A stretch of 64,000 nt of DNA from Gammaproteobacteria bacterium. Lineage in GTDB: Bacteria > Pseudomonadota > Gammaproteobacteria > Natronospirales > REEB76. Below, piece by piece: positions 10,351 to 53,123 of the stretch. Location of the stretch: assembly GCA_035691665.1 (NCBI GenBank), contig DASSIS010000007.1, positions 1,549 through 65,548 on the forward strand. The letters run 5' to 3'. A program made the translations under genes and the position numbers. A model generated the notes under the pieces. It saw nothing but the letters and a program-made list of their open reading frames with translations, was not told the DNA's origin and searched no databases. Within the stretch, counting starts at the first letter, position 1. Each line of letters starts with the position of its first letter.

Positions 10351-11622
10351 TCAGAGCACCAGCCCGCGGGCTTCGGACAGGATCTTGCTCAAGAAGCTGG
10401 TGAAGCGCGCCGCCGCGGCGCCGTCTATGACCCGATGGTCGTAGGAGAGCGACAACGGCAGCATGAGCCGCGGTTGGAAGGCCTTTCCGTCCCAGACGGG
10501 TTTCATGGATGACTTGGATACGCCGAGGATGGCCACCTCCGGCGCGTTCACGATGGGCGTGAACGCGGTGCCGCCGATGCCGCCCAGGCTCGAGATGCTG
10601 AAACAGCCGCCCTGCATCTCGTCCGCCTTCAGCTTGCCGTCACGCGCCTTGGCCGCGAGCTCGCCGAGCTCCTTCGCCACCTCGAACACGTTCTTCTTGT
10701 CCGCGTCCTTGATCACCGGCACCACGAGGCCGTTGGGGGTGTCGGCCGCGAAGCCGATGTGGAAATACTTCTTCATCACCTGGTTCTGGCCGGAAGGGTC
10801 CAGGGAGGAATTGAAGTCCGGGTATTCCTTGAGCGCCGTGACACTGGCCTTCACCAGGAAGGCGAGCGGCGTGAGCTTGGCACCGATCTTCTCGGCATCG
10901 GACTTGAGCTCCTGGCGCAGCTGCTCCAAGCCCGTGATGTCCGCCTCGTCGTGTTGGGTGACGTGGGGCACGTTGACCCAGGCCGCCTGCAGGCGCGGAC
11001 CGGAGATGCGCTTGATTCGGGAAAGCGGCTTGACCTCGACTTGGCCGAAGCGCGCGAAATCCACCTCCGGCACCTTGGGCAGTCCACCGCCGCCGGCGCC
11101 ACCGCCCTGCATGACGGCCTTCACGAAGGCCTTCACGTCGTCTTCAGTGATGCGCTCCTTGCGGCCGCTACCCTTGACGCGGGAGAGATCGACGCCCAGC
11201 TCCCGAGCGAACTTGCGCACCGAGGGGCCCGCATGGGCCTTGCCGAAACCGGCTTCGTTGATGGGTGGCAGGGAAGCCGGAGCCACAGGAGCCTGCGCTA
11301 CGGGCGCGGGCGCAGCAGGTCTCGGCGCAGCCGGCGCAGGTGCGGTCGCCTTCTGCGGCGCCGCGGCGGGCTTGGCCGCCTCTTCCTGCGCGTCCATCAC
11401 CAGCACCAGGGAGCCTTCCGAAACCTTGTCGCCCTTGTTGACCTTGAGCGCCTTGACGGTACCCGCGTAGGGCGAAGGCACGTCCATGGCGGCCTTGTCG
11501 GTCTCGAGGGTGATGAGCCCTTGTTCCTTGGCGACCACGTCGCCCGGCTTCACCATCACCTCGATGACTTCCACGTCCTTGAAGTTGCCGATGTCCGGGA
11601 CTTTGACTTCTTTTTCTGCCAC
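10351..11622 (-). CDS. aceF: dihydrolipoamide acetyltransferase (PDH E2), single lipoyl domain
   Basis: GTG start; LETDKAAMDVPSP lipoyl site, E3-binding PSVRKFARELGVDL, catalytic LSLSYDHRVIDGA. Confidence 0.92.
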   Translation of the reverse strand: MAEKEVKVPDIGNFKDVEVIEVMVKPGDVVAKEQGLITLETDKAAMDVPSPYAGTVKALKVNKGDKVSEGSLVLVMDAQEEAAKPAAAPQKATAPAPAAPRPAAPAPVAQAPVAPASLPPINEAGFGKAHAGPSVRKFARELGVDLSRVKGSGRKERITEDDVKAFVKAVMQGGGAGGGGLPKVPEVDFARFGQVEVKPLSRIKRISGPRLQAAWVNVPHVTQHDEADITGLEQLRQELKSDAEKIGAKLTPLAFLVKASVTALKEYPDFNSSLDPSGQNQVMKKYFHIGFAADTPNGLVVPVIKDADKKNVFEVAKELGELAAKARDGKLKADEMQGGCFSISSLGGIGGTAFTPIVNAPEVAILGVSKSSMKPVWDGKAFQPRLMLPLSLSYDHRVIDGAAAARFTSFLSKILSEARGLVL

Positions 11623-11662
11623 GGTCTTAAGCTCCTACCGTCGAATCAGAGAAGAACTGCGT

Positions 11663-11788
11663 CTGAAAATAGGCAATTTTGCTTACCGGCAAGGCGAAAA
11701 TGACCGAGCAAGCGGAGCGTACGCAGCAGTACGTGAGCATTGCGAGGGCGTTTTCAACGCCGCCGGGGAGCAAAAGGGCCATTTTCAG
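11663..11788 (+). repeat. ~126-nt near-palindromic dispersed element, copy A (aceE-aceF spacer)
   Basis: Ends CTGAAAAT...ATTTTCAG; core GGAGCGTAC-N6-GTACGTGAG; collinear with copies at 48486, 51673 and (inverted) 52878; right end contains the aceE stop codon. Confidence 0.85.
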
Positions 11789-14454
11789 ACCGTCACCGGG
11801 TTGGGCTTGTCGGGATTCAGTCCGTATTTCTTGATGGCTTCGGCCACCTTCTTGGCGTCCAGCTGGCCCTCATCCGCCAGGGACTTGAGCGCGGCCACCG
11901 TCACATAGCGGCGGTCCACCTCGAAGAAGTGGCGCAAACCGGTACGGGTATCGCTGCGGCCGAAGCCATCGGTGCCGAGCACCGTGTAGCGGCGCGGCAC
12001 GAACTCGCGGATCTGGTCGGCGAAGAGCTTCATGTAGTCGGTGGCCACCACGATGGGACCCGTGGTCTTGGCGAGGGCCTCGGTGACGTAGGGGACGCGG
12101 GGTTTCTCGCCGGCATGGAACATGTTCCAGCGGGCGCAATCGAGGCCCTCCCGACGCAGCTCCGTGAAGCTCGTGGCGCTCCACACGTCCGCGGACACGC
12201 CCCAGTCCTTCTCCAGCATCTCGGCCGCGGCCTCCACTTCGCGGAGGATGGTGCCGGAACCCATGAGCTGGACCCTGAGCTTCTGCTTGCCGCCCTGCTT
12301 GAGGAGATAGAGCCCTTTCAGGATGCCCTGCTCTGTACCCTTGGGCATGGCGGGCTGCACGTAGTTCTCGTTCATGCAGGTGAGGTAGTAGAAGACGTTC
12401 TCCTGCTCCTTGAACATGCGGCGCAGGCCATCCTGCACGATCACCGCCACCTCATACATGTAGGTGGGATCGTATGACACGCAGTTCGGGATGGTGCCGG
12501 ACAGGATGTGGCTGTGGCCGTCCTCGTGCTGCAGGCCTTCGCCCTCCAGCGTGGTCCTTCCAGCAGTACCTCCAATCAGAAAGCCCCGTGCCTGGATGTC
12601 GCCCGCCGCCCAGGCCAGATCGCCGATGCGCTGGAAGCCGAACATCGAGTAGTAGATGTAGAAGGGCACCATGGGCACGTCATGGTTGCTGTATGCCGTG
12701 GCCGCCGCGATCCAGGAGGCCATGGAGCCCGCCTCGGTGATGCCCTCTTCCAGTATCTGGCCCGACTTGTCTTCCTTGTAGAACATCAGCTGGTCGGCAT
12801 CCGCCGGTTCGTAGAGCTGGCCCACGGAGGAATAGATGCCGATCTGGCGGAACAGGCCTTCCATGCCGAAAGTACGCGCCTCGTCCGGCACGATGGGCAC
12901 CACGTGCTTGCCGATGCCCTTGTCCTTCACCAGCGCCGTCAGGATGCGCACCAGCGCCATGGTGGTGGAGACCTCGCGGTCGCCCGTGCCTTCCAGGAAT
13001 GTCTTGAAGAAGTCGAGGCCCGGCACCTGCAGCGGCGCGCTCTTGTGCCGGCGCTGCGGCAGATAACCGCCGAGCTTCTCGCGCCGCGCCTTCAGGTACT
13101 TGATCTCTTCGCTGTCCTCGGCGAAGCGGCGGAACGGGACCTTGCCGATCTCCTCGTTGGAAACCGGGATGTTGAAGCGGTCGCGGAACTCCTTGAGGGA
13201 GTCCTCGTCCAGCTTCTTCTGCTGGTGGGCGCCCATCTGGCCCTGCCCGGCCTTGCCCATGCCGAAGCCCTTTACGGTCTTGGCGAGGATCACCGTGGGC
13301 TGGCCCTTGCAGTCCATGGCCGCCTGGTAGGCGGCGTGCACCTTGCGCGCGTCGTGGCCGCCGCGGTTCAGGTTCCAGATCTCCTCGTCGCTCATGTTGG
13401 CGACCATCTCCAGGAGTTCGGGATACTTGCCGAAGAACTTCTCGCGCACGAACTTCCCGTCCTTGGACTTGAAGTTCTGGTACTCGCCGTCCACGCACTC
13501 CATCATGAGGCGCTTCAAGAGGTCGTTCTTGTCCTGGGCGAGCAATGGATCCCAGCGCGAGCCCCACAGCACCTTGATCACGTTCCAACCGCTACCGCGG
13601 AAGTTCGCTTCCAGCTCCTGGATGATCTTGCCGTTGCCGCGCACCGGACCGTCCAGGCGCTGCAGGTTGCAGTTCACCACGAACACCAGGTTGTCGAGCT
13701 TCTCGCGTGAGGCGAGCGAGATGGCGCCCAGGGACTCCGGCTCATCCATCTCGCCGTCACCGAGGAAAGCCCACACCTTGCGGTCGCTCTCGGGGATGAA
13801 GCCGCGGTGCTCCATGTAGCGCATGAAGCGTGCCTGGTAGATGGCCTGCAAGGGCCCGAGGCCCATGGAGACCGTGGGGAACTGCCAGTAGTCCGGCATC
13901 AGCCAGGGATGCGGATAGGAGGACAACCCGTCCCGCTCCACCTCGCGGCGGAAGTTCTTGAGCTGCTCCTCGCTGAAGCGCCCTTCCAGGAAGGAGCGGG
14001 CGTAGATGCCCGGGGAGGAATGGCCCTGGATGTAGACCAGGTCGCCGCCGTGCTGCGCGCTCGGCGCGCGCCAGAAATGGTTAAACCCCACCTCGTAGAG
14101 GGTGCCCGAAGAAGCGTAGGTGGCGATGTGGCCGCCGATGCCGCTGTTCTCCTTGTTGGCGTGCACCACCATGGCCATGGCGTTCCAGCGCAGGTAGGCC
14201 TCGATGCGCTTCTCGATGGCCCTGTCACCGGGGTAGGCCGGTTCCTGGTTGGCATTGATGGTGTTTACGTAGGCGGTGTTGGGGCTGTATGGCAGGTAGG
14301 CACCGGAGCGGCGCGCCCTGTCGATGAGCTGCTCGATCAGGAAGTGGGCACGCTCGGTGCCCTCCACGTCCAGCACCGAGGCCAGGGCATCCAGCCACTC
14401 ATGGGTCTCGGCCGGATCCAGGTCCTGGGGCAGATTCGGTACGTCGTTCGCCAT
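11785..14454 (-). CDS. aceE: pyruvate dehydrogenase E1 component (homodimeric type)
   Basis: 889 aa, full-length AceE-like (..GHIATYASS..LGDGEMDEPES..DGHSH..). Confidence 0.93.
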   Translation of the reverse strand: MANDVPNLPQDLDPAETHEWLDALASVLDVEGTERAHFLIEQLIDRARRSGAYLPYSPNTAYVNTINANQEPAYPGDRAIEKRIEAYLRWNAMAMVVHANKENSGIGGHIATYASSGTLYEVGFNHFWRAPSAQHGGDLVYIQGHSSPGIYARSFLEGRFSEEQLKNFRREVERDGLSSYPHPWLMPDYWQFPTVSMGLGPLQAIYQARFMRYMEHRGFIPESDRKVWAFLGDGEMDEPESLGAISLASREKLDNLVFVVNCNLQRLDGPVRGNGKIIQELEANFRGSGWNVIKVLWGSRWDPLLAQDKNDLLKRLMMECVDGEYQNFKSKDGKFVREKFFGKYPELLEMVANMSDEEIWNLNRGGHDARKVHAAYQAAMDCKGQPTVILAKTVKGFGMGKAGQGQMGAHQQKKLDEDSLKEFRDRFNIPVSNEEIGKVPFRRFAEDSEEIKYLKARREKLGGYLPQRRHKSAPLQVPGLDFFKTFLEGTGDREVSTTMALVRILTALVKDKGIGKHVVPIVPDEARTFGMEGLFRQIGIYSSVGQLYEPADADQLMFYKEDKSGQILEEGITEAGSMASWIAAATAYSNHDVPMVPFYIYYSMFGFQRIGDLAWAAGDIQARGFLIGGTAGRTTLEGEGLQHEDGHSHILSGTIPNCVSYDPTYMYEVAVIVQDGLRRMFKEQENVFYYLTCMNENYVQPAMPKGTEQGILKGLYLLKQGGKQKLRVQLMGSGTILREVEAAAEMLEKDWGVSADVWSATSFTELRREGLDCARWNMFHAGEKPRVPYVTEALAKTTGPIVVATDYMKLFADQIREFVPRRYTVLGTDGFGRSDTRTGLRHFFEVDRRYVTVAALKSLADEGQLDAKKVAEAIKKYGLNPDKPNPVTV

Positions 14455-16132: not shown

Positions 16133-17163
16133 CCGCCACCCTCACCCTCACCCGGCCCGACGACTGGCACCTGCACCTCAGGGACGGGGAGGTGCTGAAG
16201 GACACCGTGGTGCACACCGCCCGGCGCTTCGCCCGGGCCATCGTCATGCCCAACCTGAAGCCCCCGGTGATCACGGTGCAGCAGGCCTTGGAATACCGGG
16301 AGCGCATCCTGGCGGCCACTCCCGAGAGCGCGAGCTTCACTCCCCTCATGACCCTCTATCTCACGGAGAAGACTTGGCCCGAGGAGATCCGCCGCGCCAA
16401 GGCCAGCGGTCACGTCTACGCCGTGAAGTATTACCCGGCGGGCGCCACCACCAACGCGGAGGCAGGCGTACGGGACATCAAGAACTGCCAGGGAGTGCTG
16501 GAAGCCATGGCCGAGGCGGGTCTGCCGCTGCTGATCCACGGCGAGGTCACCGATCCGGATGTGGACGTGTTCGACCGGGAAACGGTGTTCATCGACAAGG
16601 TGCTCGCTCCCCTGGTGCGGCGGCTGCCGGCGCTCAAGGTGGTGCTGGAACACGTCACCACCAAGACCGGGGCGGACTTCGTGCTCGCGGCCCCAAAGAA
16701 CGTGGCAGCCACCCTCACCCCCCAACACCTGCTCCACAACCGCAACGCCCTCTTCAAGGGAGGCCTGCGCCCCCACCTGTACTGCCTGCCGGTGCTCAAG
16801 CGCGAGCGCGACCGGGAGGCACTGCTGAAAGCGGCCGTGAGCGGCGACCCCAAGTTCTTCCTGGGCACCGACAGCGCTCCGCACGCCCGTTATCTCAAGG
16901 AGCATTCCTGCGGCTGCGCTGGCATCTTCAGCGCCCACGCCGGCATCGAGCTCTACGCGGAAGTCTTCGACCAGGCCGGCGCCCTCGACAAGCTCGAAGC
17001 CTTCGCCAGCTTCCACGGCGCGGACTTCTACGGGCTGCCGCGCAACCGCGATCGCATCACACTGGTGCGCAAACCCTGGACACCGCCCGAGACTTATCAC
17101 TTCGGCGATGCCGCCCTGGTGCCGTTCCGCGCCGGCGAAGAAGTCGCCTGGAGCCTCGCGTAA
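16129..17163 (+). CDS. pyrC: dihydroorotase (class II, homodimeric type)
   Basis: [39 protein letters not shown]; ATGA overlap with the peptidase stop. Confidence 0.9.
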
Positions 17164-17201
17164 ACATATCTTCCCGCGGCTCCTTCCTTTATCCTTCAAC
17201 C

Positions 17202-17837
17202 ATGGACGAGACCCACGCACCTCACCCCTTCGCCACGCGCTTCCGCGGCTTCCTGCCGGTGGTGGTGGACGTGGAGACCGGTGGCTTCAACCATAAAACT
17301 GATGCCTTGCTGGAGATCGCCGGCGTGTTCCTGGAGATGGGCCCGGACGGGCGCCTCTCCCGCGGCGTGACCCACAGCTTCCACGTCCAGCCCTTCGAGG
17401 GGGCCAACATCGAACCGGCGGCCCTCGCCATCACAGGAATCGACCCTCATCATCCCCTACGCCCTGCCCTGCCGGAGCGCGAGGCGTTGCGGCGCCTGTT
17501 CCGGGAAGTGCGCAACGACCTCGACAAGTACGGCTGCAACCGCGCGGTGCTGGTCGGTCACAACGCTTTCTTCGACCTCAACTTCCTCAATGCCGCCGTG
17601 GAACGCAGCGGCGTGAAGCGCAACCCCTTCCACCCCTTCTCCAGCTTCGACACCGCGACCCTGGGCGGTGTGGCCGTGGGCCAGACGGTCCTGGCCCGCG
17701 CGGTGGAAGCCTTGCGACTGCCCTGGGACAGCTCCGCCGCCCATTCCGCCGCCTATGATGCGGAGAAGACCGCTGATCTCTTCTGCGAGATCGTCAACCG
17801 CTTCCAGGGCATCTATCAGGGGTCGCTCGCTCGCTAA
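17202..17837 (+). CDS. rnt: ribonuclease T
   Basis: FRGFLPVVVDVETGGFN..DALLEIA..LVGHNAFFDLNFL..HSAAYDAEKTADLF DEDDh exonuclease motifs. Confidence 0.9.
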   Translation: MDETHAPHPFATRFRGFLPVVVDVETGGFNHKTDALLEIAGVFLEMGPDGRLSRGVTHSFHVQPFEGANIEPAALAITGIDPHHPLRPALPEREALRRLFREVRNDLDKYGCNRAVLVGHNAFFDLNFLNAAVERSGVKRNPFHPFSSFDTATLGGVAVGQTVLARAVEALRLPWDSSAAHSAAYDAEKTADLFCEIVNRFQGIYQGSLAR

Positions 17838-39751: not shown

Positions 39752-40019
39752 GGTTCTCTCCGGAGCTAGGGGGCTGGAACGGGGTGCGGGCGATGCGCTC
39801 CTGCAGCGCGCGGCTATCCGCCTGAAGGGCTTGCACATGGGTCGCTGCCGCCAGGGTCCTGGATTCCGTCGCCGCATCCGCTTTGCCGATCCTGGCGTTG
39901 GCTTCAGCTACTGCCTTCGATGCCGCCGCCGCATCGAACCCGGCCTGCACATGCATCCCATAGAAGAATGCGGCCGCGAGCAGCAGTGCACCTGCCAGCA
40001 CGGCATAGGTTTTGAACAT
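39564..40019 (-). CDS. i-spanin (Rz-like)
   Basis: N-terminal TM MFKTYAVLAGALLLAAAFFYG, Ala/Gln-rich helical periplasmic part; position after endolysin/holin. Confidence 0.7.
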   Translation of the reverse strand: MFKTYAVLAGALLLAAAFFYGMHVQAGFDAAAASKAVAEANARIGKADAATESRTLAAATHVQALQADSRALQERIARTPFQPPSSGENHEPKTPSLPTCHDPFADPAFRLLYDAGSRALPPPGEAGDLPATGGDAVAAPAGGVRGAGAGG

Positions 40020-40044
40020 GGGAACCTCGGAAGGATTAAAAGGA

Positions 40045-40278
40045 TTAAGAAGAAGTGGGCCGTGAACGTCCGCGCAGGCCCATGAGCACCCCTACTCCCG
40101 TCGAGAGCGCGCCCACACCGGCACCGAACTCCGCCAGGTTGAAGGGTTGGTGCAACGCCAGCACCGCATAGAGCTCGAGCCCGAAACCTTCCAGTATCGC
40201 GATGGCCGCCACCAGGATCGCCTCATCCAGGGTCCCATCTTCCTGCAGGAACATCCCCTTGAGCGGTTTCAGGTTCAC
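40045..40278 (-). CDS. holin-like small membrane protein
   Basis: 77 aa with two hydrophobic segments and charged C-terminus, between endolysin and spanins. Confidence 0.5.
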   Translation of the reverse strand: MNLKPLKGMFLQEDGTLDEAILVAAIAILEGFGLELYAVLALHQPFNLAEFGAGVGALSTGVGVLMGLRGRSRPTSS

Positions 40279-40754
40279 ATGAGTCCTTTCACCGAGCCCG
40301 AGCGCAGGATCTGGCTCAAGCGGCCATAGCGTCTCGGTAATTGCTTTGCCACCGCCGTGTGGAACTCCAAGTCATCCGCCGCCCCGCCCCAATCCCCGGC
40401 GGCGCAGAGCCCATAGAAAGTCGTGAAAGCCTGGGCTTTGGCCGCGCCCAAGTTGAACCCCATGTCATTGAGAGCCGCTTGTCGTGCTTCATCCGCAGTC
40501 GGCCACCAGGGCCGCCGCCAGAGCCAACCGCAGTTGCTCGAGAGGTCGTACCCATATTGGGCGTCCACCGTCGCCGGCAGCCATTCATCATCCAGGGGCA
40601 GACCGGCCTGCACCTGTATCACCTTGGCCGCTTCGCAAGGCGGGCTCGCATCCAGATTGTGCCCGATGCCGATGGTCCAGAAACCCCTCGAGCCCTGGTA
40701 CTTGCGGGAGCGGTTCCCCTCGTCCGACTCGATGAGGGCGCGGGTGAGATCCAT
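40275..40754 (-). CDS. GH24 (T4/P22-type) lysozyme-like endolysin
   Basis: LIESDEGNRSRKYQGSRGFWTIGIGHNL aligns to P22 gp19 REEGERLKAYSDSRGIPTIGVGH; catalytic Glu and Thr present, Asp position is Gly. Confidence 0.8.
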   Translation of the reverse strand: MDLTRALIESDEGNRSRKYQGSRGFWTIGIGHNLDASPPCEAAKVIQVQAGLPLDDEWLPATVDAQYGYDLSSNCGWLWRRPWWPTADEARQAALNDMGFNLGAAKAQAFTTFYGLCAAGDWGGAADDLEFHTAVAKQLPRRYGRLSQILRSGSVKGLM

Positions 40755-40963
40755 CAGTGCCGACCCCGGAAAACCGCGCCGGTAAAAGCCGCTCCCAGGG
40801 TCAGCAGACCGGCCCAGATCAGCGCCAACACCTTCACGGCACCTCGCTCCCGGTTATGTGCTGCCAGCAGCGTCTTCACATCTCCCCGGATTTCATCAAT
40901 CACAGGTGCAAGCGCATCAAGTCTCGCTTCGACAGAGGCAAGACGTTCGTATTGGGTGGGCAT
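40754..40963 (-). CDS. small C-terminally anchored membrane protein (holin/antiholin candidate)
   Basis: 69 aa; helical N-terminus then TM VKVLALIWAGLLTLGAAFTGAVF; its stop codon overlaps the endolysin start codon by 1 nt (40754). Confidence 0.45.
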   Translation of the reverse strand: MPTQYERLASVEARLDALAPVIDEIRGDVKTLLAAHNRERGAVKVLALIWAGLLTLGAAFTGAVFRGRH

Positions 40964-41043
40964 CCAGACTCCCGAAAATCGTTAATATCAGCGGGATTGA
41001 AGTACAATTTAAAGCTAACAATTCGGAAGCAAAAGATAACAAG

Positions 41044-42153
41044 ATGGGAATAAGTTCGACTCGCTATCTCGACAAATTGGCATCATTGCGCTTCTTCGCG
41101 GCATTCCTGGTCGTGATCTATCATCTCGGCAGCGAGATCGGAAACCAGCAGAGAACGCTCGCTGCCATTCTCACTCCGATCGCAGACTACGGCTTCGTAG
41201 GCGTCTCCATATTTTTCGTGCTATCTGGCTTCGTGATCTCCCATGCGAATGATCGCTGGAAAGGCTGGGACATCTACCTGGCCGGCCGTGTAACGCGCAT
41301 CTACCCACCGCATCTTATTGTGACGTTCGCGCTGATGATGCCGGATGTTATCTTGCTGATAACCCAGGGAGGAGCCGACGGGTGGCTTAAACTGCTCTCG
41401 AACTTCTCACTGACGCAGGCATGGAGTTCAAACCCCGGTTATTTCCGCTCACTTAACCTGGTCACCTGGAGCCTGTCGGTGGAGATGAGCTTTTATGTGG
41501 CTTTCATAGCCCTGCGCCGCCTGGGGGACCGCTGGCTCCTCGCACTGACGGCCATCGCCTATCTTGTTCTCCTGGTCATCACGCTTTATTTGCGCCATAT
41601 TCATCATGATAGATGGACGTTTTATGTTTACTGGCAACTGTACATAAATCCGGTTGCAAGGCTGCCTGAATTTCTCGTTGGCATGTCCATCTATCGACTT
41701 TATCGTGTCGGGAAATTGCCACACCTCTGGGTGCCGCGCTTCAACTTTCTGCTGACCCTTGCGGCCCTGATGGCGGCGCTCTACCTGGCAGGTACTTACG
41801 GCGGCATGGGCGGGACCTTCGCTGAGTTACTTGATTACTCAGTCGTGCCGCTGCCTTTCATCGTTCTCATGATGATAGCTCTCCTCGACGAGCGCTCGAA
41901 TGTGTGGATGCATAACCGTAACTTGGTACTTCTGGGTGAATCGTCGTTTGCGCTCTATTTGCTGCATCGGCTGCTCATCGGATACTTGAACGAGCCGTTG
42001 CACAATGCAGGACTGGGCTCGAACTGGTTGATGCTGTTGGCGCTCATGATCTTCATTGCTGTTCCTGTCGCAACCTCGGTGCTTTTCTATCGATTCATTG
42101 AGTTACCGCTTACCAGAGCACTTCGATATCACCTAGTTCCGCGCAATGTTTAA
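41044..42153 (+). CDS. acyltransferase-3 family membrane protein (O-antigen/polysaccharide acyltransferase-like moron)
   Basis: LDKLASLRFFAAFLVVIYHL.., ~10 TM; opposite strand to phage genes; AT-rich upstream; visibly low GC. Confidence 0.8.
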   Translation: MGISSTRYLDKLASLRFFAAFLVVIYHLGSEIGNQQRTLAAILTPIADYGFVGVSIFFVLSGFVISHANDRWKGWDIYLAGRVTRIYPPHLIVTFALMMPDVILLITQGGADGWLKLLSNFSLTQAWSSNPGYFRSLNLVTWSLSVEMSFYVAFIALRRLGDRWLLALTAIAYLVLLVITLYLRHIHHDRWTFYVYWQLYINPVARLPEFLVGMSIYRLYRVGKLPHLWVPRFNFLLTLAALMAALYLAGTYGGMGGTFAELLDYSVVPLPFIVLMMIALLDERSNVWMHNRNLVLLGESSFALYLLHRLLIGYLNEPLHNAGLGSNWLMLLALMIFIAVPVATSVLFYRFIELPLTRALRYHLVPRNV

Positions 42154-43502
42154 AGGCGTGCATCTGCCGTCCAGTGCATGCGGAGCAAATCACCTGCAGC
42201 AATGGCCGTACCAGTCGCCGGCTCAAACATGGTAGTAGCCAATACGCCTACGGATACAGCGACATCAGCACCTGTTGTTGCATCTCTCAACTTGCCCATC
42301 GAGCCCGTCGCTTCAGAATAGAGCATCACAATAGGAGTAACTCCCTTCTCTACCTCAAAGTAGACGTCCATCTCGTTGATGCCATTGCCGCCACTGTAAC
42401 CGACAGGTACATGAGTGGTCTTCTGCCCTGGGAAAGAGGTCGTACCCGTCAAAACACCATAGGGCCACGAGCGCTCATACCAGCGTTTCACCCCCTGAAG
42501 TTCATCTATAAACCTCGGCGCCACGCAAACCTGTGCCAAGGTGTTAATACATACCTGCCAATCCGTCGCGTAGAAATCCTTCGTCGTTACCGCCCCGCAA
42601 TCCATCTCCAGGACGATCTCGATGCCGCTGCTGCAATCCCCCATGGCAGCGACGGCTGTCACCGCCGTCGTCGTGTTCGTGGGCAGGCTCACCGTAAAGC
42701 CCGTCGTGACGTTGGTTACGCTTGCGAAGTTGTCCTGCGCCGTCGCCTTGTTGATGGTCAGGAAAGCGTTGATGTTGCCGCCCGTGTCTTGGAAGCCCAG
42801 CACGCTGAAGAGCACGTTCCGGTTCTTGAGCGCGATGGCATCCCGGCTCTCGATCCAGCGGCGGAAGAAGACCTTGCCCGTCCCCGTGATGGTGCAGCCG
42901 GCGAGTTTGCAGGAATAAGCCGTCGCCGCGCCGGCGACCGTATAGGCCGTGTCCTGGGTGATGCTCCCGGCACTCACTGCCGTACCCGAAGCCCAGCATT
43001 GAACGAGGTCTACGGCCCCATAGGCCCGCGAGGTTCCCAGGGCCGGCGACGCGCTCGTGCCGGTCTGCGCCACCCGGCAACAGGGGTCCACCATGAAATT
43101 CTTGCCCGGCGGCGCCGGGTTCAAGAGGTTCCACTGCGTCCCGTCATACTTGAGGAAGGCCGGCACCCCGGCTTGCAGTTCACCTCCTGCGAGCGGCAGC
43201 CCGTTCCCATAGATGTTCGTCGTCGCGAGTCCGTCCGGCGCGAAGGTGGCCGGACCCGTGCTGTCCGTAGCGGGGTTGAGGATCTGCAGTAGACCCGGCA
43301 CCAACGCGCCGAAAGGCCGCCCGTTCGCCGCCGTCAGCGCATTCGCGCTGCCACCCGCCGTGGGCAGGCTCACCGCATAGGAAGCGAGATCCGCCATGAT
43401 GTCCCAGCCCGCCGTCTTCACCTGCGAGGGGCGCATCCCCGTCTTGAAGTAGTTGGCGAGATCGTTGTTGCTGGGTGTCGTGCTGTACTGGTCTATGGAC
43501 AT
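42150..43502 (-). CDS. phage tail fibre / receptor-binding protein
   Basis: 450 aa; N-terminus MSIDQYSTTPSNNDLANYFKTGMRP typical of tail-fibre N-termini; beta-rich; position before the lysis cassette. Confidence 0.65.
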   Translation of the reverse strand: MSIDQYSTTPSNNDLANYFKTGMRPSQVKTAGWDIMADLASYAVSLPTAGGSANALTAANGRPFGALVPGLLQILNPATDSTGPATFAPDGLATTNIYGNGLPLAGGELQAGVPAFLKYDGTQWNLLNPAPPGKNFMVDPCCRVAQTGTSASPALGTSRAYGAVDLVQCWASGTAVSAGSITQDTAYTVAGAATAYSCKLAGCTITGTGKVFFRRWIESRDAIALKNRNVLFSVLGFQDTGGNINAFLTINKATAQDNFASVTNVTTGFTVSLPTNTTTAVTAVAAMGDCSSGIEIVLEMDCGAVTTKDFYATDWQVCINTLAQVCVAPRFIDELQGVKRWYERSWPYGVLTGTTSFPGQKTTHVPVGYSGGNGINEMDVYFEVEKGVTPIVMLYSEATGSMGKLRDATTGADVAVSVGVLATTMFEPATGTAIAAGDLLRMHWTADARL

Positions 43503-43571
43503 CTGCTATCCCCAAAAACGAAGACCCCGCCGGTTGGCGGGGTCGGTAGAGCCTGTATCCAAGTACGCCCG

Positions 43572-44156
43572 TCAGGAGGGAACCTTGTCGAAACCCTCAT
43601 ACCACAAGGTCATGTTGTCATGATCCCCGTAATGGAAGCCGGCTCCGTCTTTGGCATACCACGCCTTCCACTTTTCGATGATGGCTTGCTGCACGTCGAC
43701 AGGAGCGACGAAGAGCGAATCGCGCGATTCCCATACGCCGAACATGTTCACTTGATCACCACTGCCAAACAGCAGCCAATATTCGCGGTTCTTGTCCAGT
43801 TTCAGCTGCTTCAGTGTCGCGGCGGACCCGGCCTTGAACTCGAACCCGGTGATGTAATAGAGGCTGCGCAGCGCCCAGATCACATGCAGGCTGTCCTGGT
43901 TCTTGTTCCTGTCTTGATTCGGCACATGCGCGATGGAGACAGTATGCAGTTGCTTCACCAGCAGCCCCGCCGCATCGGCACCGTGCTCAGCGAAGCACTG
44001 TAGGATGGGTCTCTGGTCGAAATTGTCGTTCTTCCAGTAACCCAGCTCCTTCACCTTGGCCGCCATCTCCTCGTTCGTGCAGGCCTCTGCTCTTGCGGGC
44101 AGGCTCAGCGTCGCGACGCATAGTGCGAGATAGGCGATTGCGATTCCCTGTTTCAT
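43572..44156 (-). CDS. secreted hypothetical protein (candidate immunity/inhibitor partner)
   Basis: Signal peptide MKQGIAIAYLALCVATLSLPARA/EA; lower GC; immediately downstream (2-nt gap) of the 221-aa hydrolase-like gene. Confidence 0.5.
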   Translation of the reverse strand: MKQGIAIAYLALCVATLSLPARAEACTNEEMAAKVKELGYWKNDNFDQRPILQCFAEHGADAAGLLVKQLHTVSIAHVPNQDRNKNQDSLHVIWALRSLYYITGFEFKAGSAATLKQLKLDKNREYWLLFGSGDQVNMFGVWESRDSLFVAPVDVQQAIIEKWKAWYAKDGAGFHYGDHDNMTLWYEGFDKVPS

Positions 44157-44157
44157 C

Positions 44158-44823
44158 TCAGTTGTCCGCTTTGTAGAAGTCGATATAGGTATTGCTGCCC
44201 TTGGGCACGTCGCCCCCGCCGGTGTTCATGAACGGCCCGAAACTCCTGACCAGTTCCGTATTCCCCCAGCTTGAGGGGGGTGTCTGGAGCCCGTCACCGC
44301 CTTCCTGTCGGATGAGGAAATGGTTGGTCCCGGACGGCGGCTTCAGCTGTTGCGCCGCCTGCGCCGCATCCACGGAGTTGCCCCACACCATCCTCTCCAC
44401 CCCGTTACTGAGATCAGGAACGCTTTCACGCACCTTGGGGTTGACCAATCTTACTCCCGCCATCCAAGCCCGAGCGGTCTTGAGTTGCTGCGCCGAATCC
44501 GGGTTCCAGTTTTCGGCGCGATAGACCCCCTTGTCATCAGCCTGTGCCGTGAGCTGCGGATAGATACCGGCGGTTTCCCCATAGATCGTCCGCTGCTGGT
44601 GTATCAGGTTGGGGTCGGGCGGTATCTGCGCAGCAGGCCCGGATGGATGAGCGGAGACCGGCGGCAGATTGCCCTCCGTGACCATGCCCGGAGCCGGCGT
44701 CACCGGTGGAAGGCCTTGCAATAGAGCACCCGCCAAGCCCGGCGGTGCCGGATTGGGCGGCCGACCCAGCAGGTCCGCGGCCAGGCCTTGGGTGAAGACT
44801 CCGCTTCCATTGGGATAAGCCAT
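44158..44823 (-). CDS. phage protein: shared N-terminal module + Pro-rich linker + possible SleB-like cell-wall hydrolase domain
   Basis: N-terminus aligns with the product of 53636..54310; C-terminal RTIYGETAG.. and ..AGVRLVNPKV weakly resemble the Hydrolase_2 signature. Confidence 0.5.
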   Translation of the reverse strand: MAYPNGSGVFTQGLAADLLGRPPNPAPPGLAGALLQGLPPVTPAPGMVTEGNLPPVSAHPSGPAAQIPPDPNLIHQQRTIYGETAGIYPQLTAQADDKGVYRAENWNPDSAQQLKTARAWMAGVRLVNPKVRESVPDLSNGVERMVWGNSVDAAQAAQQLKPPSGTNHFLIRQEGGDGLQTPPSSWGNTELVRSFGPFMNTGGGDVPKGSNTYIDFYKADN

Positions 44824-44849
44824 GTCCGTTTCCTTCTCGTTCAGATGGA

Positions 44850-45698
44850 TCAGTAGTCGGGCTCGTCTATCGGCATCGTCGTCGCATCCCAGTTGCCGGC
44901 CGGCTGCAGCGTGTTCAGCGTCGGCAGACTGCTGCTGGAATAGAGCGGCATCTGGTTGTACTGGTTGTAGAGGTTCATGCCCATCGAAGCGGCATTCATC
45001 GCGTTACCCAGCGGATTGCTGAAATAGGGGTTCGTCGTCTGCATGCCGGGCTGCACGCCGCCCAGGAAGCTCTCGTATTGCTGCAGCTGTTGTACCGGCA
45101 GCATCTGGTAGTAGTTGTACTTCTGCTGGTTCGCATCGATGTTCTGCTGCGCCAGGTCCTGCACCTGCTTGCCCACCCCTTCTGCGGCCGTGAGCCCGTT
45201 CATGCGCGTGTCATAGAGGTTTTGCGCCTGGTTCCCGGCCGCGAGCGCGTCCTGCATGTCCTGCTGATAGGCGTTGCCGTAGAGCCCCGTCGCCAGGTTG
45301 TCGAGCTGCTGCCCCCGCAGCGCCTGCGAGGCATCCACGTTCCGGCCCGTCCCGCCGAACTCCGAGGCGAGCTGCCCCTGTGTCGCACCCGCTGCCTGCT
45401 TGAAAGTGGCATCGAGATAGGGGTTCGATCCGCCCGCGTCATTGAGCAGGGTGGTGTCGAAGCCCTGTGCTGCGTCGAGCGCCGGCGTGCCGTTCATCCC
45501 CAGCGTCGAGATCGCCCCCATGGCCTGCTGCTGCGGCTGCGAGAAACCCGCCACCAGGGGGCCGGAATAATACTGGGGCTGGTAGCTCAAGAGCTTGTTC
45601 GCCTGCCCCAGCGCCGTCGAGATGTAGGGCAGCATGTAAGACGCTGGCATCTGCGTCGTCGTGGTGCTGCCCGAGGGAGAAGACCCGCCTAGGCTCAT
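44850..45698 (-). CDS. Gln/Asn-rich phage protein (internal virion/ejection-protein-like)
   Basis: 282 aa low-complexity Q/N/G-rich; position between tail hub-like and fibre genes. Confidence 0.4.
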   Translation of the reverse strand: MSLGGSSPSGSTTTTQMPASYMLPYISTALGQANKLLSYQPQYYSGPLVAGFSQPQQQAMGAISTLGMNGTPALDAAQGFDTTLLNDAGGSNPYLDATFKQAAGATQGQLASEFGGTGRNVDASQALRGQQLDNLATGLYGNAYQQDMQDALAAGNQAQNLYDTRMNGLTAAEGVGKQVQDLAQQNIDANQQKYNYYQMLPVQQLQQYESFLGGVQPGMQTTNPYFSNPLGNAMNAASMGMNLYNQYNQMPLYSSSSLPTLNTLQPAGNWDATTMPIDEPDY

Positions 45699-46225
45699 GG
45701 CTGCACCCTTCCCCGCGGCAACGCCACCGGCATCGGCCTGGGCCGGATGATCGGTGGACTTGGCGCATAGGTGTAAGGATTGTAGGCCGGCACCGCCGCG
45801 AGCTGCGCCAACGTGTTGACCTGGCCGTTATAGCTGCCGCCCGTCGGCGCCTGGGCCAGGCCGTTGGCCATCGCGTTGTAGGGCCCGCCACCCTGTGCCA
45901 GGGGTGTATAGGTGAATGCCGGATTGGGCAGCATGGGGTTCACCCGTCCCGCCGCTGCTGGCAGCCCCGTCGGCGTGGCCGTCCCACCCCAGCGCTGTGT
46001 CTCAAGCGGGTTCACCCCGTTGTTGGGGATGTTGCCGTTGATGAGGCCGGAACCGAAGGGGTTCGTCATGTTGGCGCCGACGTTGGAACCGCTGTGGCCC
46101 AACAGGTTCAGCGGATCGGACATGTTCGCGAGCCCGGCGCCGTAGTGGATGCCGGAGAGGCTGTTCAAGTCCGAATATTGTCCGCCGCTCGAGGCCGCAC
46201 TCGTGATCGCGCTGCCCATGCTCAT
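45695..46225 (-). CDS. Gly/Asn/Pro-rich phage protein
   Basis: 176 aa low complexity; translationally coupled to both neighbours. Confidence 0.4.
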   Translation of the reverse strand: MSMGSAITSAASSGGQYSDLNSLSGIHYGAGLANMSDPLNLLGHSGSNVGANMTNPFGSGLINGNIPNNGVNPLETQRWGGTATPTGLPAAAGRVNPMLPNPAFTYTPLAQGGGPYNAMANGLAQAPTGGSYNGQVNTLAQLAAVPAYNPYTYAPSPPIIRPRPMPVALPRGRVQP

Positions 46226-46605
46226 AGTTTTCTCCTCATGATGGTCGCCATCTCCTCGTAATCGGGATACACCCGCCCCCAGCCCCGCCGCCCCTGCAAC
46301 CGCATCTCGTCGCAGCCGAGGGCCTTCGCCCAGGCTTCGATGGCGCCGAGGTCCGCCTTATGCGACTGCAAGTCTTCACCACCGCAGAGCACCAGCATGC
46401 AAAGCCGTACACCGGGGTAGGTCTGGATCTGTGTCACCACCGCGAGCGCCCAGGGCACCACCCAAAGCTGCATCCGCTCGGCGAGGAGCTGCTGCTGTAT
46501 ATCTGCCAGCCCCCACTCCCTCTGCCGTGCGAGGGCCTTCTCCAGGCAGCCGCTGACTCGCGGCCACAGGGCGGCCACGTCCCAATGAGGTACCTGGAAG
46601 ATCAT
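46222..46605 (-). CDS. hypothetical phage protein
   Basis: 127 aa, coupled (4-nt overlaps) on both sides; no motif recognised. Confidence 0.4.
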   Translation of the reverse strand: MIFQVPHWDVAALWPRVSGCLEKALARQREWGLADIQQQLLAERMQLWVVPWALAVVTQIQTYPGVRLCMLVLCGGEDLQSHKADLGAIEAWAKALGCDEMRLQGRRGWGRVYPDYEEMATIMRRKL

Positions 46606-46928
46606 CGGACGATCAGGTAGTCGAAGTTCAGGTCCGGCTGTGCCACCGCCGCATGCGTGAGCGTGATGCTCCCGCCGTTCGCGGGTACCGAAACCGGGTC
46701 CGCCCAGAGTCCTGTCACCGTGGCCGCATGGGCCGTGGTCGGGAAGAGGAAGACCTTGCAGCCACGGGTGATGTGGTTGTCCGAGAGGGTGGTCACGGTC
46801 CCGTTGTCGGTCAGCGTCACACTTCCCAGGCTGTTGAGCGAGCCGACCAAAAGGCGATTGATGAGCGTCGCCATCTTCGCCGTCGGGTCATAGGGCGGGG
46901 TCGTCCTGAGCGGTGGCAATTTACTCAT
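46602..46928 (-). CDS. hypothetical phage tail-associated protein
   Basis: MSKLPPLRTTPPYDPTAKMATLINRL..; start at 46928 (ATGA overlap with the upstream gene); the longer track ORF start was rejected. Confidence 0.45.
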   Translation of the reverse strand: MSKLPPLRTTPPYDPTAKMATLINRLLVGSLNSLGSVTLTDNGTVTTLSDNHITRGCKVFLFPTTAHAATVTGLWADPVSVPANGGSITLTHAAVAQPDLNFDYLIVR

Positions 46929-48463
46929 GCCTCGCCTGCCGCCGTCCCATACAGGTCTATGCCTGTAGCGACCCCGAACCCGCCGTTGGCGCCGCCCGGG
47001 ATGATCACCCGCGCTCGCACATAGCGGCCTGTGGCCCTGAGGTCGCAGCGACCCGTCCGTGGGTTCTGGGCCGCGGCGGCGCTCACCGTATAGGTTTCGT
47101 TCTCCAGGTTCCGGGTCAGGAGCTGCACCGTCGGTGCCAGGACATAATTCCCCGCCGTCACCACCGGCCGCATGCCATCTATATAAGTGAGCCCGCCGGG
47201 GTTGGGCGAGCCTTCCGTGCTGTCGATCACCGCCGGGTCCAGGGGATTGCCCGTCAGCGTCCCGAAGGTGTTGCCCCCGTCGAAGGCTTGGAGCTGCAAG
47301 TCCCCACCCTGCCAATAGGGGTTGTCCAGGGACGGCGTGATGAGATCCAGGTCCGTGTTCACGTTATCGAGTGTGTCCAGGGTGTAACCGAAGCTCCGGG
47401 ATCCGAACACCCGGCTCACCGACTGGGAAGCCGGCGCGAACCGGTTCTCCGCGTAGTTGTAGGCGACCTGCCGGTCCGGGATGCCCGTGCTGTTACCCGC
47501 GCTGCAATAGCACCAATAGATGAGCTTGTTGATGGGATCGAGTGCGCCCACCACCCGGTCCGCGTAGGTGAGCGACACGTCGTTCAGGAAGGTCGTGTCG
47601 CACTTCCCATGGCCGATCTGCTGCACCTGGAAGCCATCCGTCATGCAGAAGCCGTCCGCCGCGATGAAATAGCTGAGGTTCCCGAGCTGCACCGGCGCGT
47701 TGGGGAAGAAGGCCCCGCGCTGCTTCTCGTAGGTGCTGAAGTCGAAGATCGCGTCGCCTCCTATATAGGTGGCCCGGGTGATGCCCCGCTGCTGGAAGAT
47801 GAGCCCGTACTCGTAGCCGTTGGCGATCTCCGTCACCGGCCCGTATACCGCGTCCAGGAACTGCTGCCCCGCCTGGTTCTCCTGGTCCGTCAGCGTCGAG
47901 AAGCCCCAATAGGTCGGGTTCCCGATGCCGCACCACTGCACCCGGTTCGGCACGTTGCCGTTGATGCCGTCTTCCGTGGCGCCGAGCATCACGAACTGGT
48001 TGAGGGTGCCGATGCATCCCGCTTTCGGCGGCGCGCCGGCGAGTGCCGCGAAGCCCGCCCCGCCCACCGGCATGGACTGCACCGCATCCGCGAAGTCCGT
48101 GGCCAGCACCAGGTTCCCGAAGCTCGGGCTCGAGAACTCCGTGAATTTCCAGTACTGCCCGTCCGCCGCCGTGTAAGGGCTCCCGCCCCCGGCCGAGAGG
48201 TTCGCGAAAGCCGTGCCGGTGTACTCCAGGAGCTGCGTCCCCGTCCCGGCGTAGATGTGCACGTTCCCGTCCGCATCCGCCATGGAAGTCGCGCCCTGCA
48301 CCCGCGCCGGCGCCGTCACCCCGAGAGAGGAGAACCCCAGCGCCGGTTGATAAGCCCCGTTCACCCACAGCACGTTCGAGGCATATGGCGAGCCTGGATT
48401 ATTAATTTCTGGTAAATCAGGTAACCACTCGCCGAATTTCAGTGCTGCTAGAAGTTTCGCCAT
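46925..48463 (-). CDS. phage tail hub / head-completion-like beta-propeller protein (P22 gp10-like position)
   Basis: 512 aa with repeated beta-strand blocks (..VHIYAGTGTQLLEY.., ..FGNLVLATDF.., ..FVMLGATEDG..); size and position. Confidence 0.4.
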   Translation of the reverse strand: MAKLLAALKFGEWLPDLPEINNPGSPYASNVLWVNGAYQPALGFSSLGVTAPARVQGATSMADADGNVHIYAGTGTQLLEYTGTAFANLSAGGGSPYTAADGQYWKFTEFSSPSFGNLVLATDFADAVQSMPVGGAGFAALAGAPPKAGCIGTLNQFVMLGATEDGINGNVPNRVQWCGIGNPTYWGFSTLTDQENQAGQQFLDAVYGPVTEIANGYEYGLIFQQRGITRATYIGGDAIFDFSTYEKQRGAFFPNAPVQLGNLSYFIAADGFCMTDGFQVQQIGHGKCDTTFLNDVSLTYADRVVGALDPINKLIYWCYCSAGNSTGIPDRQVAYNYAENRFAPASQSVSRVFGSRSFGYTLDTLDNVNTDLDLITPSLDNPYWQGGDLQLQAFDGGNTFGTLTGNPLDPAVIDSTEGSPNPGGLTYIDGMRPVVTAGNYVLAPTVQLLTRNLENETYTVSAAAAQNPRTGRCDLRATGRYVRARVIIPGGANGGFGVATGIDLYGTAAGEA

Positions 48464-48485
48464 AGCTTTGTTTATTCCCTAAACC

Positions 48486-48613
48486 CTAAAAATTAGAGAT
48501 TTTGATTCCCAGCGAGGCAAAAATGCCCGAGCAACCCGGAGCGTACTTTTGATGTACGTGAGGATTGCGAGGGCGTTTTTAACGCTGCTGGGGAGCAAAA
48601 GATCAATTTTTAG
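48486..48613 (+). repeat. near-palindromic dispersed element, copy B
   Basis: CTAAAAAT...ATTTTTAG ends; core GGAGCGTAC-ttttgat-GTACGTGAG; nearly collinear with copy A. Confidence 0.85.
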
Positions 48614-48795
48614 GGCCTGGGTTGCCGTGTTCAGGTGCATCCGGTAGCCATTCCCCGAACCTTAGTGTCGTTAAGAGTTTCGCCATGTCGCTATTGTTTG
48701 TGTCGGAAGCGATTCAGTCGCCGAGATGTCGCATTTCCCCAAGGCTCAGCTATGCTTCGCCGCGAGAGGGATATCCATGCCAAGGAGTGAGGGCG

Positions 48796-49086: not shown

Positions 49087-49180
49087 GCGCTTAGCCTTTC
49101 TCGTCATGACGTACAGGGACGTACTAATGCCGCGGGAGGCAGGATGCCGGGAGCGGCGCCCGCGTAAGCGGGTATCCAGT

Positions 49181-50624: not shown

Positions 50625-50637
50625 GTGCTATATCCGC

Positions 50638-51052: not shown

Positions 51053-51053
51053 A

Positions 51054-51672: not shown

Positions 51673-51801
51673 TTAAAAACGAGAGATTTTGTTCACTGGC
51701 TAGGCGCGGGCGTCCGAGGAGCCCGGAGCGTACTTTGGGTGTACGTGAGGACTCCGAGAGGCGCCCGCAACACCGCCAGGGGACAAAAGATCCGTTTTTA
51801 G
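51673..51801 (+). repeat. near-palindromic dispersed element, copy C (MCP-decoration spacer)
   Basis: TTAAAAACG...CGTTTTTAG ends; core GGAGCGTAC-tttgggt-GTACGTGAG; right end contains the MCP stop codon. Confidence 0.85.
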
Positions 51802-52877: not shown

Positions 52878-53003
52878 CTCGAATGGGTCTTTTGCCCTCT
52901 GGCGGCGTTGCAGGCTCCTTCGCAGTCCTCACGTACGACAAAAGTACGCTCCGGGTGCTCAGTCGCCCGCGCCTAGCCATAGGGACAAAATCCCCGATTC
53001 TTG
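52878..53003 (-). repeat. near-palindromic dispersed element, copy D (inverted orientation, MCP 5' leader)
   Basis: Plus strand reads CCTCACGTAC-gacaaaa-GTACGCTCC; reverse complement is collinear with copy C. Confidence 0.8.
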
Positions 53004-53123
53004 GCCGTGCTGAGAATAAAGATGCGGTGGAGACCGCTACTGACTAACTGACGGGTAGTTACCGGATGGCCTTTGACGGAAGGCTGTACCGAAGTTCGTC
53101 ACATGACGCCGTGACCGCGAAGA

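Follow-up and report, generated by a model that had tools for sequence, protein, structure and literature searches.

ERIC repeats have been used in strain typing for 30 years and are reportedly the same elements as IRU and RU-1, said to have been described by Sharples and Lloyd in 1990 and by Hulton and coworkers in 1991. To our knowledge, the transposase of ERIC, its conserved internal features, and its range are still unknown. Here, we analyzed a near-palindromic repeat of 126 nt, designated copy A, which lies in the spacer between aceE and aceF, the genes of the E1 and E2 components of pyruvate dehydrogenase (PDH), in a 64,000-nt stretch of gammaproteobacterial DNA (GenBank contig DASSIS010000007.1), referred to as the window. 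Copy A is very probably one insertion of a non-autonomous mobile hairpin repeat, that is, a MITE (miniature inverted-repeat transposable element), and most likely one of the ERIC type. As selfish DNA goes, a MITE in an operon spacer is nothing unusual. The breadth of this family and the conserved, strand-specific tip of its hairpin are not reported in reviews of such repeats.

ERIC has been described only from Enterobacteriaceae and Vibrionaceae (PMC10969869), and according to a review, DNA motifs for structure or function have not been found in it besides the terminal repeats (PMC2229807). It is cotranscribed and acts in an orientation-dependent manner; next to stop codons, an RNase E site in its 3' terminal repeat is unmasked in a ribosome-dependent way, and the upstream transcript is destabilized (PMC3184786; PMC10969869; PMC2229807). 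The Correia/NEMIS repeats of Neisseria resemble the window element in being hairpin MITEs of 100 to 160 bp with TA ends that occur within operons; they are cotranscribed and act via RNase processing of the hairpin (PMC10969869; PMC2229807). Their sequence is unrelated, however, and their conserved part is a terminal repeat of 24 to 26 bp, some elements carrying a site for integration host factor, whereas the most conserved part of the window family is the hairpin tip. REP/BIME/REPIN sequences share with it the form of intercistronic palindromes with strand-specific hairpin features, and they can make an upstream mRNA segment more stable and cause unequal expression of genes in one operon. REPs differ in being GC-rich, often arranged as inverted doublets, linked to RAYT, 20 to 40 nt long, and marked by a GTAG/CGTC tag (defined in PMC3733652), whereas the window element is a single 126-nt hairpin with AT-rich termini and without such a tag. 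CIR, RIME, and Bru-RS are intergenic palindromic repeats of ~100 to 120 bp conserved across alphaproteobacterial genera (PMC2229807), although CIR (Caulobacter CcrM-associated intergenic repeats) RNA reportedly consists of a pair of arms with a linker between them and not of one hairpin. In a 2024 census of 1.4 million prokaryotic MITEs, 97.4% were genus-specific, the table, as we read it, held no mixed-phylum clusters for bacteria, and MITEs were common to hosts and their viruses (PMC11602168).

The aceE-aceF spacer of the window measures 162 nt (11623-11784). In the four closest relatives, it is only 11 to 12 nt long; AceF is 89 to 92% identical to that of the window in three of these (L122, L123, and L124) and 96% identical in the fourth (L178). 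The empty junction reads ..ACG GTT TGA GGAGAAAGACC GTG GCA GAA.., and the junction of the window reads ..ACG GTC TGA, followed by 149 nt and then by GGAGCTTAAGACC GTG GCA GAA... Deleting window positions 11636 to 11784 from the alignment gives back the junction of the relatives. The C-terminal residues of AceE, ..NPVTV, are the same in the window and in relatives without the element. The AceF of the window is 100% identical to a protein of a gammaproteobacterial metagenome-assembled genome, whereas an exact-protein look-up of AceF and P0001 gave no record. The insertion lies between the aceE stop codon and the aceF Shine-Dalgarno (SD) sequence, GGAG (complement of 11632-11635), which is kept downstream of the insert, and both reading frames and the SD are intact. 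The element entered the aceE-aceF junction recently. Because it is missing in the four closest relatives, it is not a conserved part of PDH regulation, and since these relatives do without it, a tolerated selfish insertion is the default reading. Most simply, the insertion is a tolerated selfish event and not an evolved PDH control element.

Direct reading of the sequence confirmed the coordinates and anatomy of the 126-nt unit given in an earlier note on this DNA. The unit ends in CTGAAAAT/ATTTTCAG, of which ATTTTCAG includes the complement of the aceE stop codon, has the subterminal boxes TTTTGC/GCAAAA, and leaves 40 nt between its near end and the GTG start of aceF. The note had also stated that it exactly fills the spacer; the hairpin does lie inside the spacer, but the inserted block of 149 nt includes 27 extra nucleotides, and the spacer is longer still. 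When a hidden Markov model (HMM) built from the four window copies was run on the window, it recovered just four sequences (E = 2e-37 to 5e-35; next E = 0.14), namely, copy A and the three further copies reported in the note (B, C, and the inverted copy D), with no weaker ones. The four copies are 126 to 131 nt long with pairwise identities of 66 to 79%, and all four, spread over 64 kb, are intergenic; copies A, C, and D stand within co-directional gene strings. Each folds into a single long hairpin on both strands that is far stabler than shuffled sequences (-57 to -71 kcal/mol; z = -5 to -8.6). In all four, the sense strand, defined as the one with GGAG..TGAG, folds 9 to 14 kcal/mol better than its complement. 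The sense strand of copy A is the plus strand (-71 kcal/mol, z = -7.3), and the aceEF mRNA, from the minus strand, carries the antisense version (-57 kcal/mol, z = -5.6).

Of the 46 pairs in the RNAalifold consensus of the four copies, 21 are the same throughout, 5 differ on one side alone (all G-C/G-U), and 17 differ on both sides and still pair. The latter, which bear out the two-sided differences described in the note, include AAAA/TTTT versus GCGGGCG/CGCCCGC and TTTTGC/GCAAAA versus TTTTGT/ACAAAA. The compensatory variation is thus genuine, and selection for pairing, proposed in the note for a long hairpin, reaches far beyond this genome. All four copies have the core GGAGCGTAC-loop-GTACGTGAG, whose loop measures 6 nt in copy A and 7 nt in copies B to D. 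Copies B and C are bounded by TA..TA (copy C by TAA..TAA) and copy A by TG..CA. The insertion polymorphism that the note had proposed to look for was found at the aceE-aceF junction, empty in four relatives, and at variable phage sites.

For the comparison with ERIC, the E. coli copy from the ybhJ-ybhI spacer served as the reference. Its layout is ..GGAAGGCG-19 nt-GGAGCTTAC-ATAA-GTAAGTGAC-17 nt-AACGCAGC.., and that of copy A is ..GCAAGGCG-17 nt-GGAGCGTAC-GCAGCA-GTACGTGAG-18 nt-AACGCCGC.. Both have in common the order and spacing AAGGCG-17/19 nt-GGAGC(G/T)TAC-loop-GTA(C/A)GTGA-18/17 nt-AACGC(C/A)GC, and the G/T and C/A differences in the tip stem compensate each other. ERIC has a conserved central core (GTGAATCCCCAGGAGCTTACATAAGTAAGTGACTGGGGTGAGCG); AAGGCG, GGAGCnTAC, GTAnGTGA, and AACGCAGC occupy equivalent positions in ERIC and in the window element. 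AAGGCG and AACGCnGC face each other yet are not complementary, so that palindromy does not explain why both are present. Forty-two copies, with enteric and alphaproteobacterial sequences excluded, were used to build a covariance model, R1. It scored the window copies at 67 to 82 bits and matched E. coli ERIC over its full length in the same orientation at 21.1 bits. With filters off, ERIC ranked first in 50 kb of E. coli sequence at that score (E ~1e-3), followed by a match of 10.9 bits.

Further likenesses to ERIC are an imperfect palindrome of about the same length (~127 bp in ERIC) that forms one long hairpin, a dispersed, intergenic distribution within transcription units that is polymorphic between relatives, TA at the termini of many copies (copy A has TG..CA), and one orientation on upstream stop codons. 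As to differences, no identity is seen with the window element at the BLAST or HMM level, the tip stem of ERIC is CTTAC/GTAAG and that of the window element CGTAC/GTACG, and the terminal repeats are TATACTC and CTAAAAATnAGAGATTTTG, respectively. The hosts of ERIC are Enterobacteriaceae and Vibrionaceae, whereas the window host is an uncultured, non-enteric gammaproteobacterium with relatives of the element in at least nine phyla. The element is ERIC-like and probably a homolog of ERIC, not counted as ERIC proper. We prefer "ERIC-like" because the support is modest: a sequence-only profile was blank, and a broader model, R2, gave ERIC 16.6 bits. At this level of structure plus motifs, architecture and submotifs match ERIC, so that the statement in the earlier note that no named family was recognized no longer stands. 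To call copy A the founding member, as the note did, is misleading, for a prophage contains three of the four copies, and the family has a wide distribution. Its REP/BIME- or MITE-like assignment holds for a MITE-like dispersed hairpin and fails for REP/BIME, given a length of 126 nt, no tag, and no Y1/RAYT gene in 29 window open reading frames (ORFs). The Rfam scan that it had suggested, run with gathering thresholds on the whole window and eight diverse loci, matched no family on the elements, nor did copies C and D match any at E <= 10. A literature search by core sequence returned unrelated primer matches only.

An alignment of 114 copies from many taxa was used to examine the fold. In this alignment, which was fitted to the model and so favors structure, 87.1% of cells were paired, compared with 61.7% in column shuffles and 25 to 41% when partners were slid by 1 to 3 columns, a large margin. 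Two-sided changes occurred in 23 of 24 pairs; for the pair just below the tip loop, for example, 65 copies have G-C, 33 have C-G, and 10 have A-U. The tip consensus is 5'-A N C [G GA] G CGUAC-loop-GUACG U [GA] G N' A, with an internal loop whose closing pairs are C-G and a nearly invariant G.U. In copy A, the tip is a 5-bp stem (six pairs with the closing G.U) over the conserved internal loop 5'-GGA/5'-GA, which consists of tandem G.A pairs, proposed to be sheared, and one extra G. Two GA/GA loops and an AAGGC/AACGC loop follow lower on the stem. The conserved mismatches are all purine-purine (G.A), on the sense strand only, and the sense strand has 114 G.U pairs against 65 A.C pairs. Because of the purine mismatches, the G.U excess, and the better folding of the sense strand, the selected fold belongs to one strand.

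Relative to host genes, as placed by crude ORF-based gene calls, 31 copies were in sense, 47 in antisense, 25 in convergent, and 12 in divergent orientation. The core center lay 53 to 73 nt (cutoff, 75) from the upstream stop codon in 38 of the 47 antisense copies and in 10 of the 31 sense copies (Fisher P = 3e-5). Among co-directional contexts, antisense copies thus abut the upstream stop codon, which at this distance falls inside or directly at the hairpin's terminal TA/TG; copies A and C conform to this. In keeping with it, De Gregorio et al. are said to have observed in 2005 that Yersinia ERIC elements overlapping or adjoining stop codons share one orientation.

Several known structures were considered for the tip and rejected. 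A K-turn does not fit: the bulge has 1 nt where 3 would be needed, and the register is set by covarying N-N' and C-G pairs. Mimicry of the sarcin-ricin loop, based on the likeness of AGUACGUGAGGAC to AGUACGAGAGGAC of 23S rRNA, was dropped in view of variant copies that alter the string and keep the pairing. The 3' half of the tip, (A)GUACGUGAGGAC, as at window positions 51735 to 51760, is one base off this universally conserved loop, which was judged coincidental. Group II intron domain V, integron attC, sso/ssi origins, and a CsrA sponge were set aside on the grounds of unfit anatomy.

The range of the family was assessed by a scan of one genome per species with the pattern GGAGCGTAC-N4-10-GTACGTGAG. 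It returned at least 120 matches, and by our own arithmetic, about 120 are expected by chance in 596 Gb. Among the matches listed, nearly all lie at the tip of a ~120-nt hairpin, and R1 matches them end to end. They share features that were not searched for, namely, AAGGCG with AACGCnGC, two 2x2 GA/GA loops, and often subterminal GATTTTG..CAAAAGAT boxes; the loops and boxes occur in Arcobacteraceae, Clostridia, Desulfobacterales, and the window copies, among others. For this reason, the listed matches are not chance. An approximate tally of them from record titles gave ~40 loci in Alphaproteobacteria, ~17 in Bacillota, ~15 in Desulfobacterota or "delta" records, ~12 in Nitrospirota, ~11 in Gammaproteobacteria, ~5 in Bacteroidota, ~4 in Myxococcota, and ~3 in Burkholderiaceae, ~1 each in Planctomycetota (Scalindua), Campylobacterota (Arcobacteraceae), and Binatia, and ~10 without an informative taxon name. 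At least nine phyla (Pseudomonadota, Nitrospirota, Desulfobacterota, Myxococcota, Bacillota, Bacteroidota, Planctomycetota, Campylobacterota, and Binatia) thus have ~120-nt hairpins with this tip. The alphaproteobacterial loci, which have the same tip and GANTC-rich arms, may be CIR, RIME, or Bru-RS.

It should be noted that the scan required the exact core, and core invariance among its matches is therefore given by construction. A fair sample for core variation is provided by 14 extra copies in the same loci that lack the exact core. These keep GGAG..YGAG or show a recurrent GCAG variant, and their tip stem varies by compensation (CGTGC/GCACG, CGAAC/GTTCG, CATAC/GTATG, and even CCCGCC/GGCGGG). 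When R1 was run over 1.3 Mb of loci, every inspected match, down to 22 bits, was a family member; the inspection took in the 14 copies lacking the exact core and not every weak match. The terminal repeats of the family read CTAAAAATnAGAGATTTTG ... CAAAAGATCnATTTTTAG or begin with TAGAAGTGGTTTCAAAAC ..., and many members are bounded by TA..TA.

We tentatively raise the possibility that ERIC is the enterobacterial branch of an unrecognized cross-phylum superfamily of ~120-nt hairpin repeats, borne by phages as well, that is defined by a strand-specific apical module. The defining part would perhaps be 5'-A-N-C-GGAG-[5-bp stem]-loop-[stem']-YGAG-N'-A and not the terminal repeats. Conservation on one strand across phyla would then imply that one strand, as single-stranded DNA (ssDNA) or RNA, is read by a widely conserved partner. 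If the superfamily is real, this partner could be a transposase family dedicated to it or a universal factor of the host; the ribosomal anti-SD sequence is a possible one, because GGAG and GAGG are SD-like. It would then offer a first handle on how ERIC-type repeats move or act. Should the family hold, it would also be an exception to the genus-specific picture of MITEs, with one strand-specific tip in at least nine phyla and phages, and a point from which to look for the partner that recognizes this tip.

Several observations count against an ERIC-type MITE insertion. Copy A ends in TG..CA and not in TA..TA, its 27 extra nucleotides are of unexplained origin, as is an imperfect direct repeat of ACCGTC beside it, and no clean target-site duplication was seen in three filled/empty pairs (aceE-aceF, capsid/next gene, and E. 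coli glnA-glnL). No transposase was found among the 29 window ORFs screened against Pfam. A sequence-only nhmmer profile of 111 non-enteric copies did not match ERIC, and the R2 score (E = 0.025, with filters off) was lost with default filters. The gene calls behind the orientation counts are crude, with at least one error (in L124). Since the link to ERIC is invisible to the sequence-only profile and weak with R2, convergence of long hairpins keeps some weight: the likeness to ERIC and the cross-phylum family would then be unrelated, lineage-specific palindromes, any long GC-balanced hairpin with a GTAC-rich tip scoring with a structure model. The modest covariance scores (16.6 to 21 bits) and the built-in invariance of the scanned core suit this explanation. 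We nevertheless rate it as unlikely, for it does not account for AAGGCG in the left arm and AACGCnGC in the right arm, which are non-complementary, stand at fixed distances, and lie outside the search pattern, nor for the two shared GA/GA loops and subterminal boxes. Moreover, the R1 matches inspected were all family members, and ERIC scored 10 bits above the next match in 50 kb.

The strand asymmetry, with purine-rich loops on one strand, the G.U excess, and the difference in folding energy, could also point to a REP/BIME/REPIN-type element moved as ssDNA by RAYT (an IS200/IS605-like Y1 enzyme) or by another hairpin-recognizing enzyme rather than by a TA-targeting DDE transposase. An ssDNA intermediate fits the mixed orientation of sense and antisense copies better than an mRNA function does, and no clean TA duplication is found at copy A. 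This origin is unlikely all the same: the repeats are single hairpins of 126 nt and not inverted doublets of 20- to 40-nt REP units, they lack the GTAG/CGTC tag, the 29 window ORFs contain no Y1 transposase domain, and many members have TA..TA ends like ERIC. Another possibility, a phage-borne expression cassette kept in late operons for higher capsid mRNA stability and for gene-dosage ratios, whose aceE-aceF copy would be an accidental spill-over from the resident prophage, is suggested by the prophage location of three of the window's four copies, which bracket the capsid gene, by the recurrence of head-module placement in two unrelated phage groups, and by the exact core in 53 viral contigs. 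However, most of the at least 120 genome loci are without phage context, and the sites differ between close phages, as expected of repeated insertion and not of a conserved module. We regard such a cassette as improbable in its own right; it is compatible with a mobile ERIC-type repeat and does not exclude it. Least credible, to the point of being very improbable, is an RNA dedicated to the PDH operon and regulating it in cis (an attenuator, a processing site, or a riboswitch-like element), evolved to set the E1:E2 ratio. The position between aceE and aceF, the strong fold of the mRNA strand, and an aceF SD located in the loop of a small downstream hairpin would suit it, but the empty junction in four relatives with 89 to 96% identical AceF largely refutes it. 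The three other window copies stand in unrelated phage contexts and relatives of the element in hundreds of unrelated ones, no promoter-like signal and, on either strand of 11450 to 11950, no terminator-like site (GC-rich short stem plus U run) was found, and no Rfam family matched. What appeared to be a PDH regulatory element thus becomes a recent insertion of selfish DNA.

As an ERIC-type MITE, the element would be mobilized in trans by a transposase encoded elsewhere. A TA-targeting enzyme, like the one proposed for ERIC, is suggested by the TA ends of copies B and C, and the element would travel on prophages as well as on chromosomes. In the window, it would be cotranscribed with aceEF as an RNA hairpin of -57 kcal/mol that starts at the aceE stop codon, and a tight, 11-nt translational coupling of E1 and E2 would be replaced by a structured spacer of 162 nt. 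The hairpin may alter how stable the mRNA segments upstream and downstream of it are relative to each other, either by protection from 3' exonucleases or by RNase E/III processing; the RNase E route could involve ribosome-dependent unmasking of a site where the hairpin abuts the stop codon. The result would be a shift in the aceE:aceF mRNA or protein ratio (E1:E2). An effect on aceE/aceF expression is plausible by analogy with ERIC, as in Yersinia, and with Correia and REP elements, and the filled and empty aceE-aceF alleles form a natural pair for the effect of a 126-nt hairpin on E1:E2.

Table 1. Features of the window discussed in the text (positions are those of the 64,000-nt stretch)
Feature	Position	Strand	Remarks
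aceF, PDH E2, 423 aa	10351..11622	-	GTG start
Inserted block	11636..11784	.	149 nt, missing in relatives; hairpin plus 27 extra nt (11636-11662)
Copy A, hairpin repeat	11663..11788	+	near-palindrome of 126 nt in the aceE-aceF spacer
Apical module of copy A	11714..11737	+	GGAGCGTAC-GCAGCA-GTACGTGAG
aceE, PDH E1, 889 aa	11785..14454	-	stop codon TGA (11785-11787) inside the terminus of copy A
Phage lysozyme	40275-40754		
512-aa gene	46925-48463		
Copy B	48486..48613	+	in a 717-nt insert with the DUF3892 ORF, between the adaptor gene and the 512-aa gene
DUF3892 ORF	48622-49086	+	
Phage adaptor, SU10-type	49181-49798		
Helix-turn-helix protein	50638-50973		
Copy C	51673..51801	+	directly downstream of the capsid gene and antisense to it; capsid stop codon TAA in its terminus
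Major capsid gene, PF13252	51798..52850	-	flanked by copies C and D
Copy D	52878..53004	-	directly upstream of the capsid gene, sense orientation

Around copy A, ACCGTC occurs at 11637 to 11642 and again at 11789 to 11794, an imperfect direct repeat that brackets a 146-nt segment. It may be a target duplication or a carried-over donor flank. A 20-nt tail, GAATCAGAGAAGAACTGCGT, had no second occurrence in the window or in 182 loci. A mini-hairpin of ACGGU and ACCGU with the aceF SD in its loop is predicted at window positions 11618 to 11645 (minus strand) and at 1095 to 1120 of L178. In empty alleles, this ACGGU..ACCGU hairpin can show the aceE stop codon together with the aceF SD in its loop; in the filled allele, an equivalent hairpin is re-formed via the duplicated ACGGT of the 27-nt tail.

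A prophage-like block extends over ~40000 to 54400 of the window, possibly from ~30000, and contains many ORFs without a Pfam match. It is homologous to and collinear with the viral contigs L153 and L160 (L160 and L009 are one contig); the capsids are 92 to 95% identical. The site of copy C is empty in L009 and L153, where the spacer is 9 to 12 nt. Copy D has an ortholog in L009 and none in L153. Conversely, L009 and L153 have a copy after the 512-aa gene, where the window has none. Since these sites differ among the window, L009, and L153, the element moved repeatedly within one phage lineage. The exact core was found in 53 viral contigs; in ~15 of these contigs, the element stands immediately 3' of an HK97-type capsid gene, and in P2-like phages, including Yersinia phage vB_YenM_42.18, it stands between gpM and gpL. 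A search of neighboring genes around ~170 copies for a possible transposase gave only phage head-module genes as recurrent ones. The 717-nt insert at 48464 to 49180, which combines copy B with the DUF3892 ORF on the opposite strand, has no counterpart in phage L009, where the flanking genes abut. It looks like a moron-like cassette associated with the repeat.

The grx-rnt spacer was a second polymorphic chromosomal site, filled in L124 and empty in L122, although this pair is too diverged for a target duplication to be read. The copy at 3779 to 3874 of L124 belongs to a sister subfamily and lies between genes for glutaredoxin and RNase T; the window lineage, like L122, is without a copy there. 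The window ORF with the RNase_T domain (16374-17837) has a longest reading of 487 aa, with the domain at residues 296 to 470, and the RNase T proteins of the relatives have 191 to 211 aa. The window ORF may be an over-extended call or an N-terminal fusion.

Individual members of the family showed further arrangements. In Bacillus chungangensis (L006, 5336-5457), a copy downstream of 10 clustered tRNA genes lies just upstream of the start of 16S rRNA (..TTTTGGAGAGTTTGATCCTGG). Head-to-tail arrays of two or three copies with a spacing of 120 to 165 nt were seen in metagenome-assembled genomes of Pelotomaculum (L004, 6148-6561) and of an alphaproteobacterium (L027, 5838-6187) and in Bacillus caseinilyticus (L025, 3391-3660). 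Two copies from Nitrospirales/Nitrospira (L020, 996-1118; L110, 3946-4068) have a right arm split by a nested, GC-rich hairpin of ~40 nt (CCTGCCTGCGCGAAGCCGCTCCGGCGAAGGCAGG), which is a second small element inserted into the repeat. A second enteric repeat type with the same tip, distinct from ERIC, was present in the glnA-glnL spacer of E. coli 700481 (L179, 601-719) and in L048, L017, and L053. This type occurs at a median of five places per E. coli genome, in some strains in the glnA 3' region, and also in P2-like phages (Yersinia phage vB_YenM_42.18). The glnA-glnL spacer of strain K-12 (L181) has a REP-type sequence (GCCGGATG..) instead, within the annotated small RNA GlnZ.

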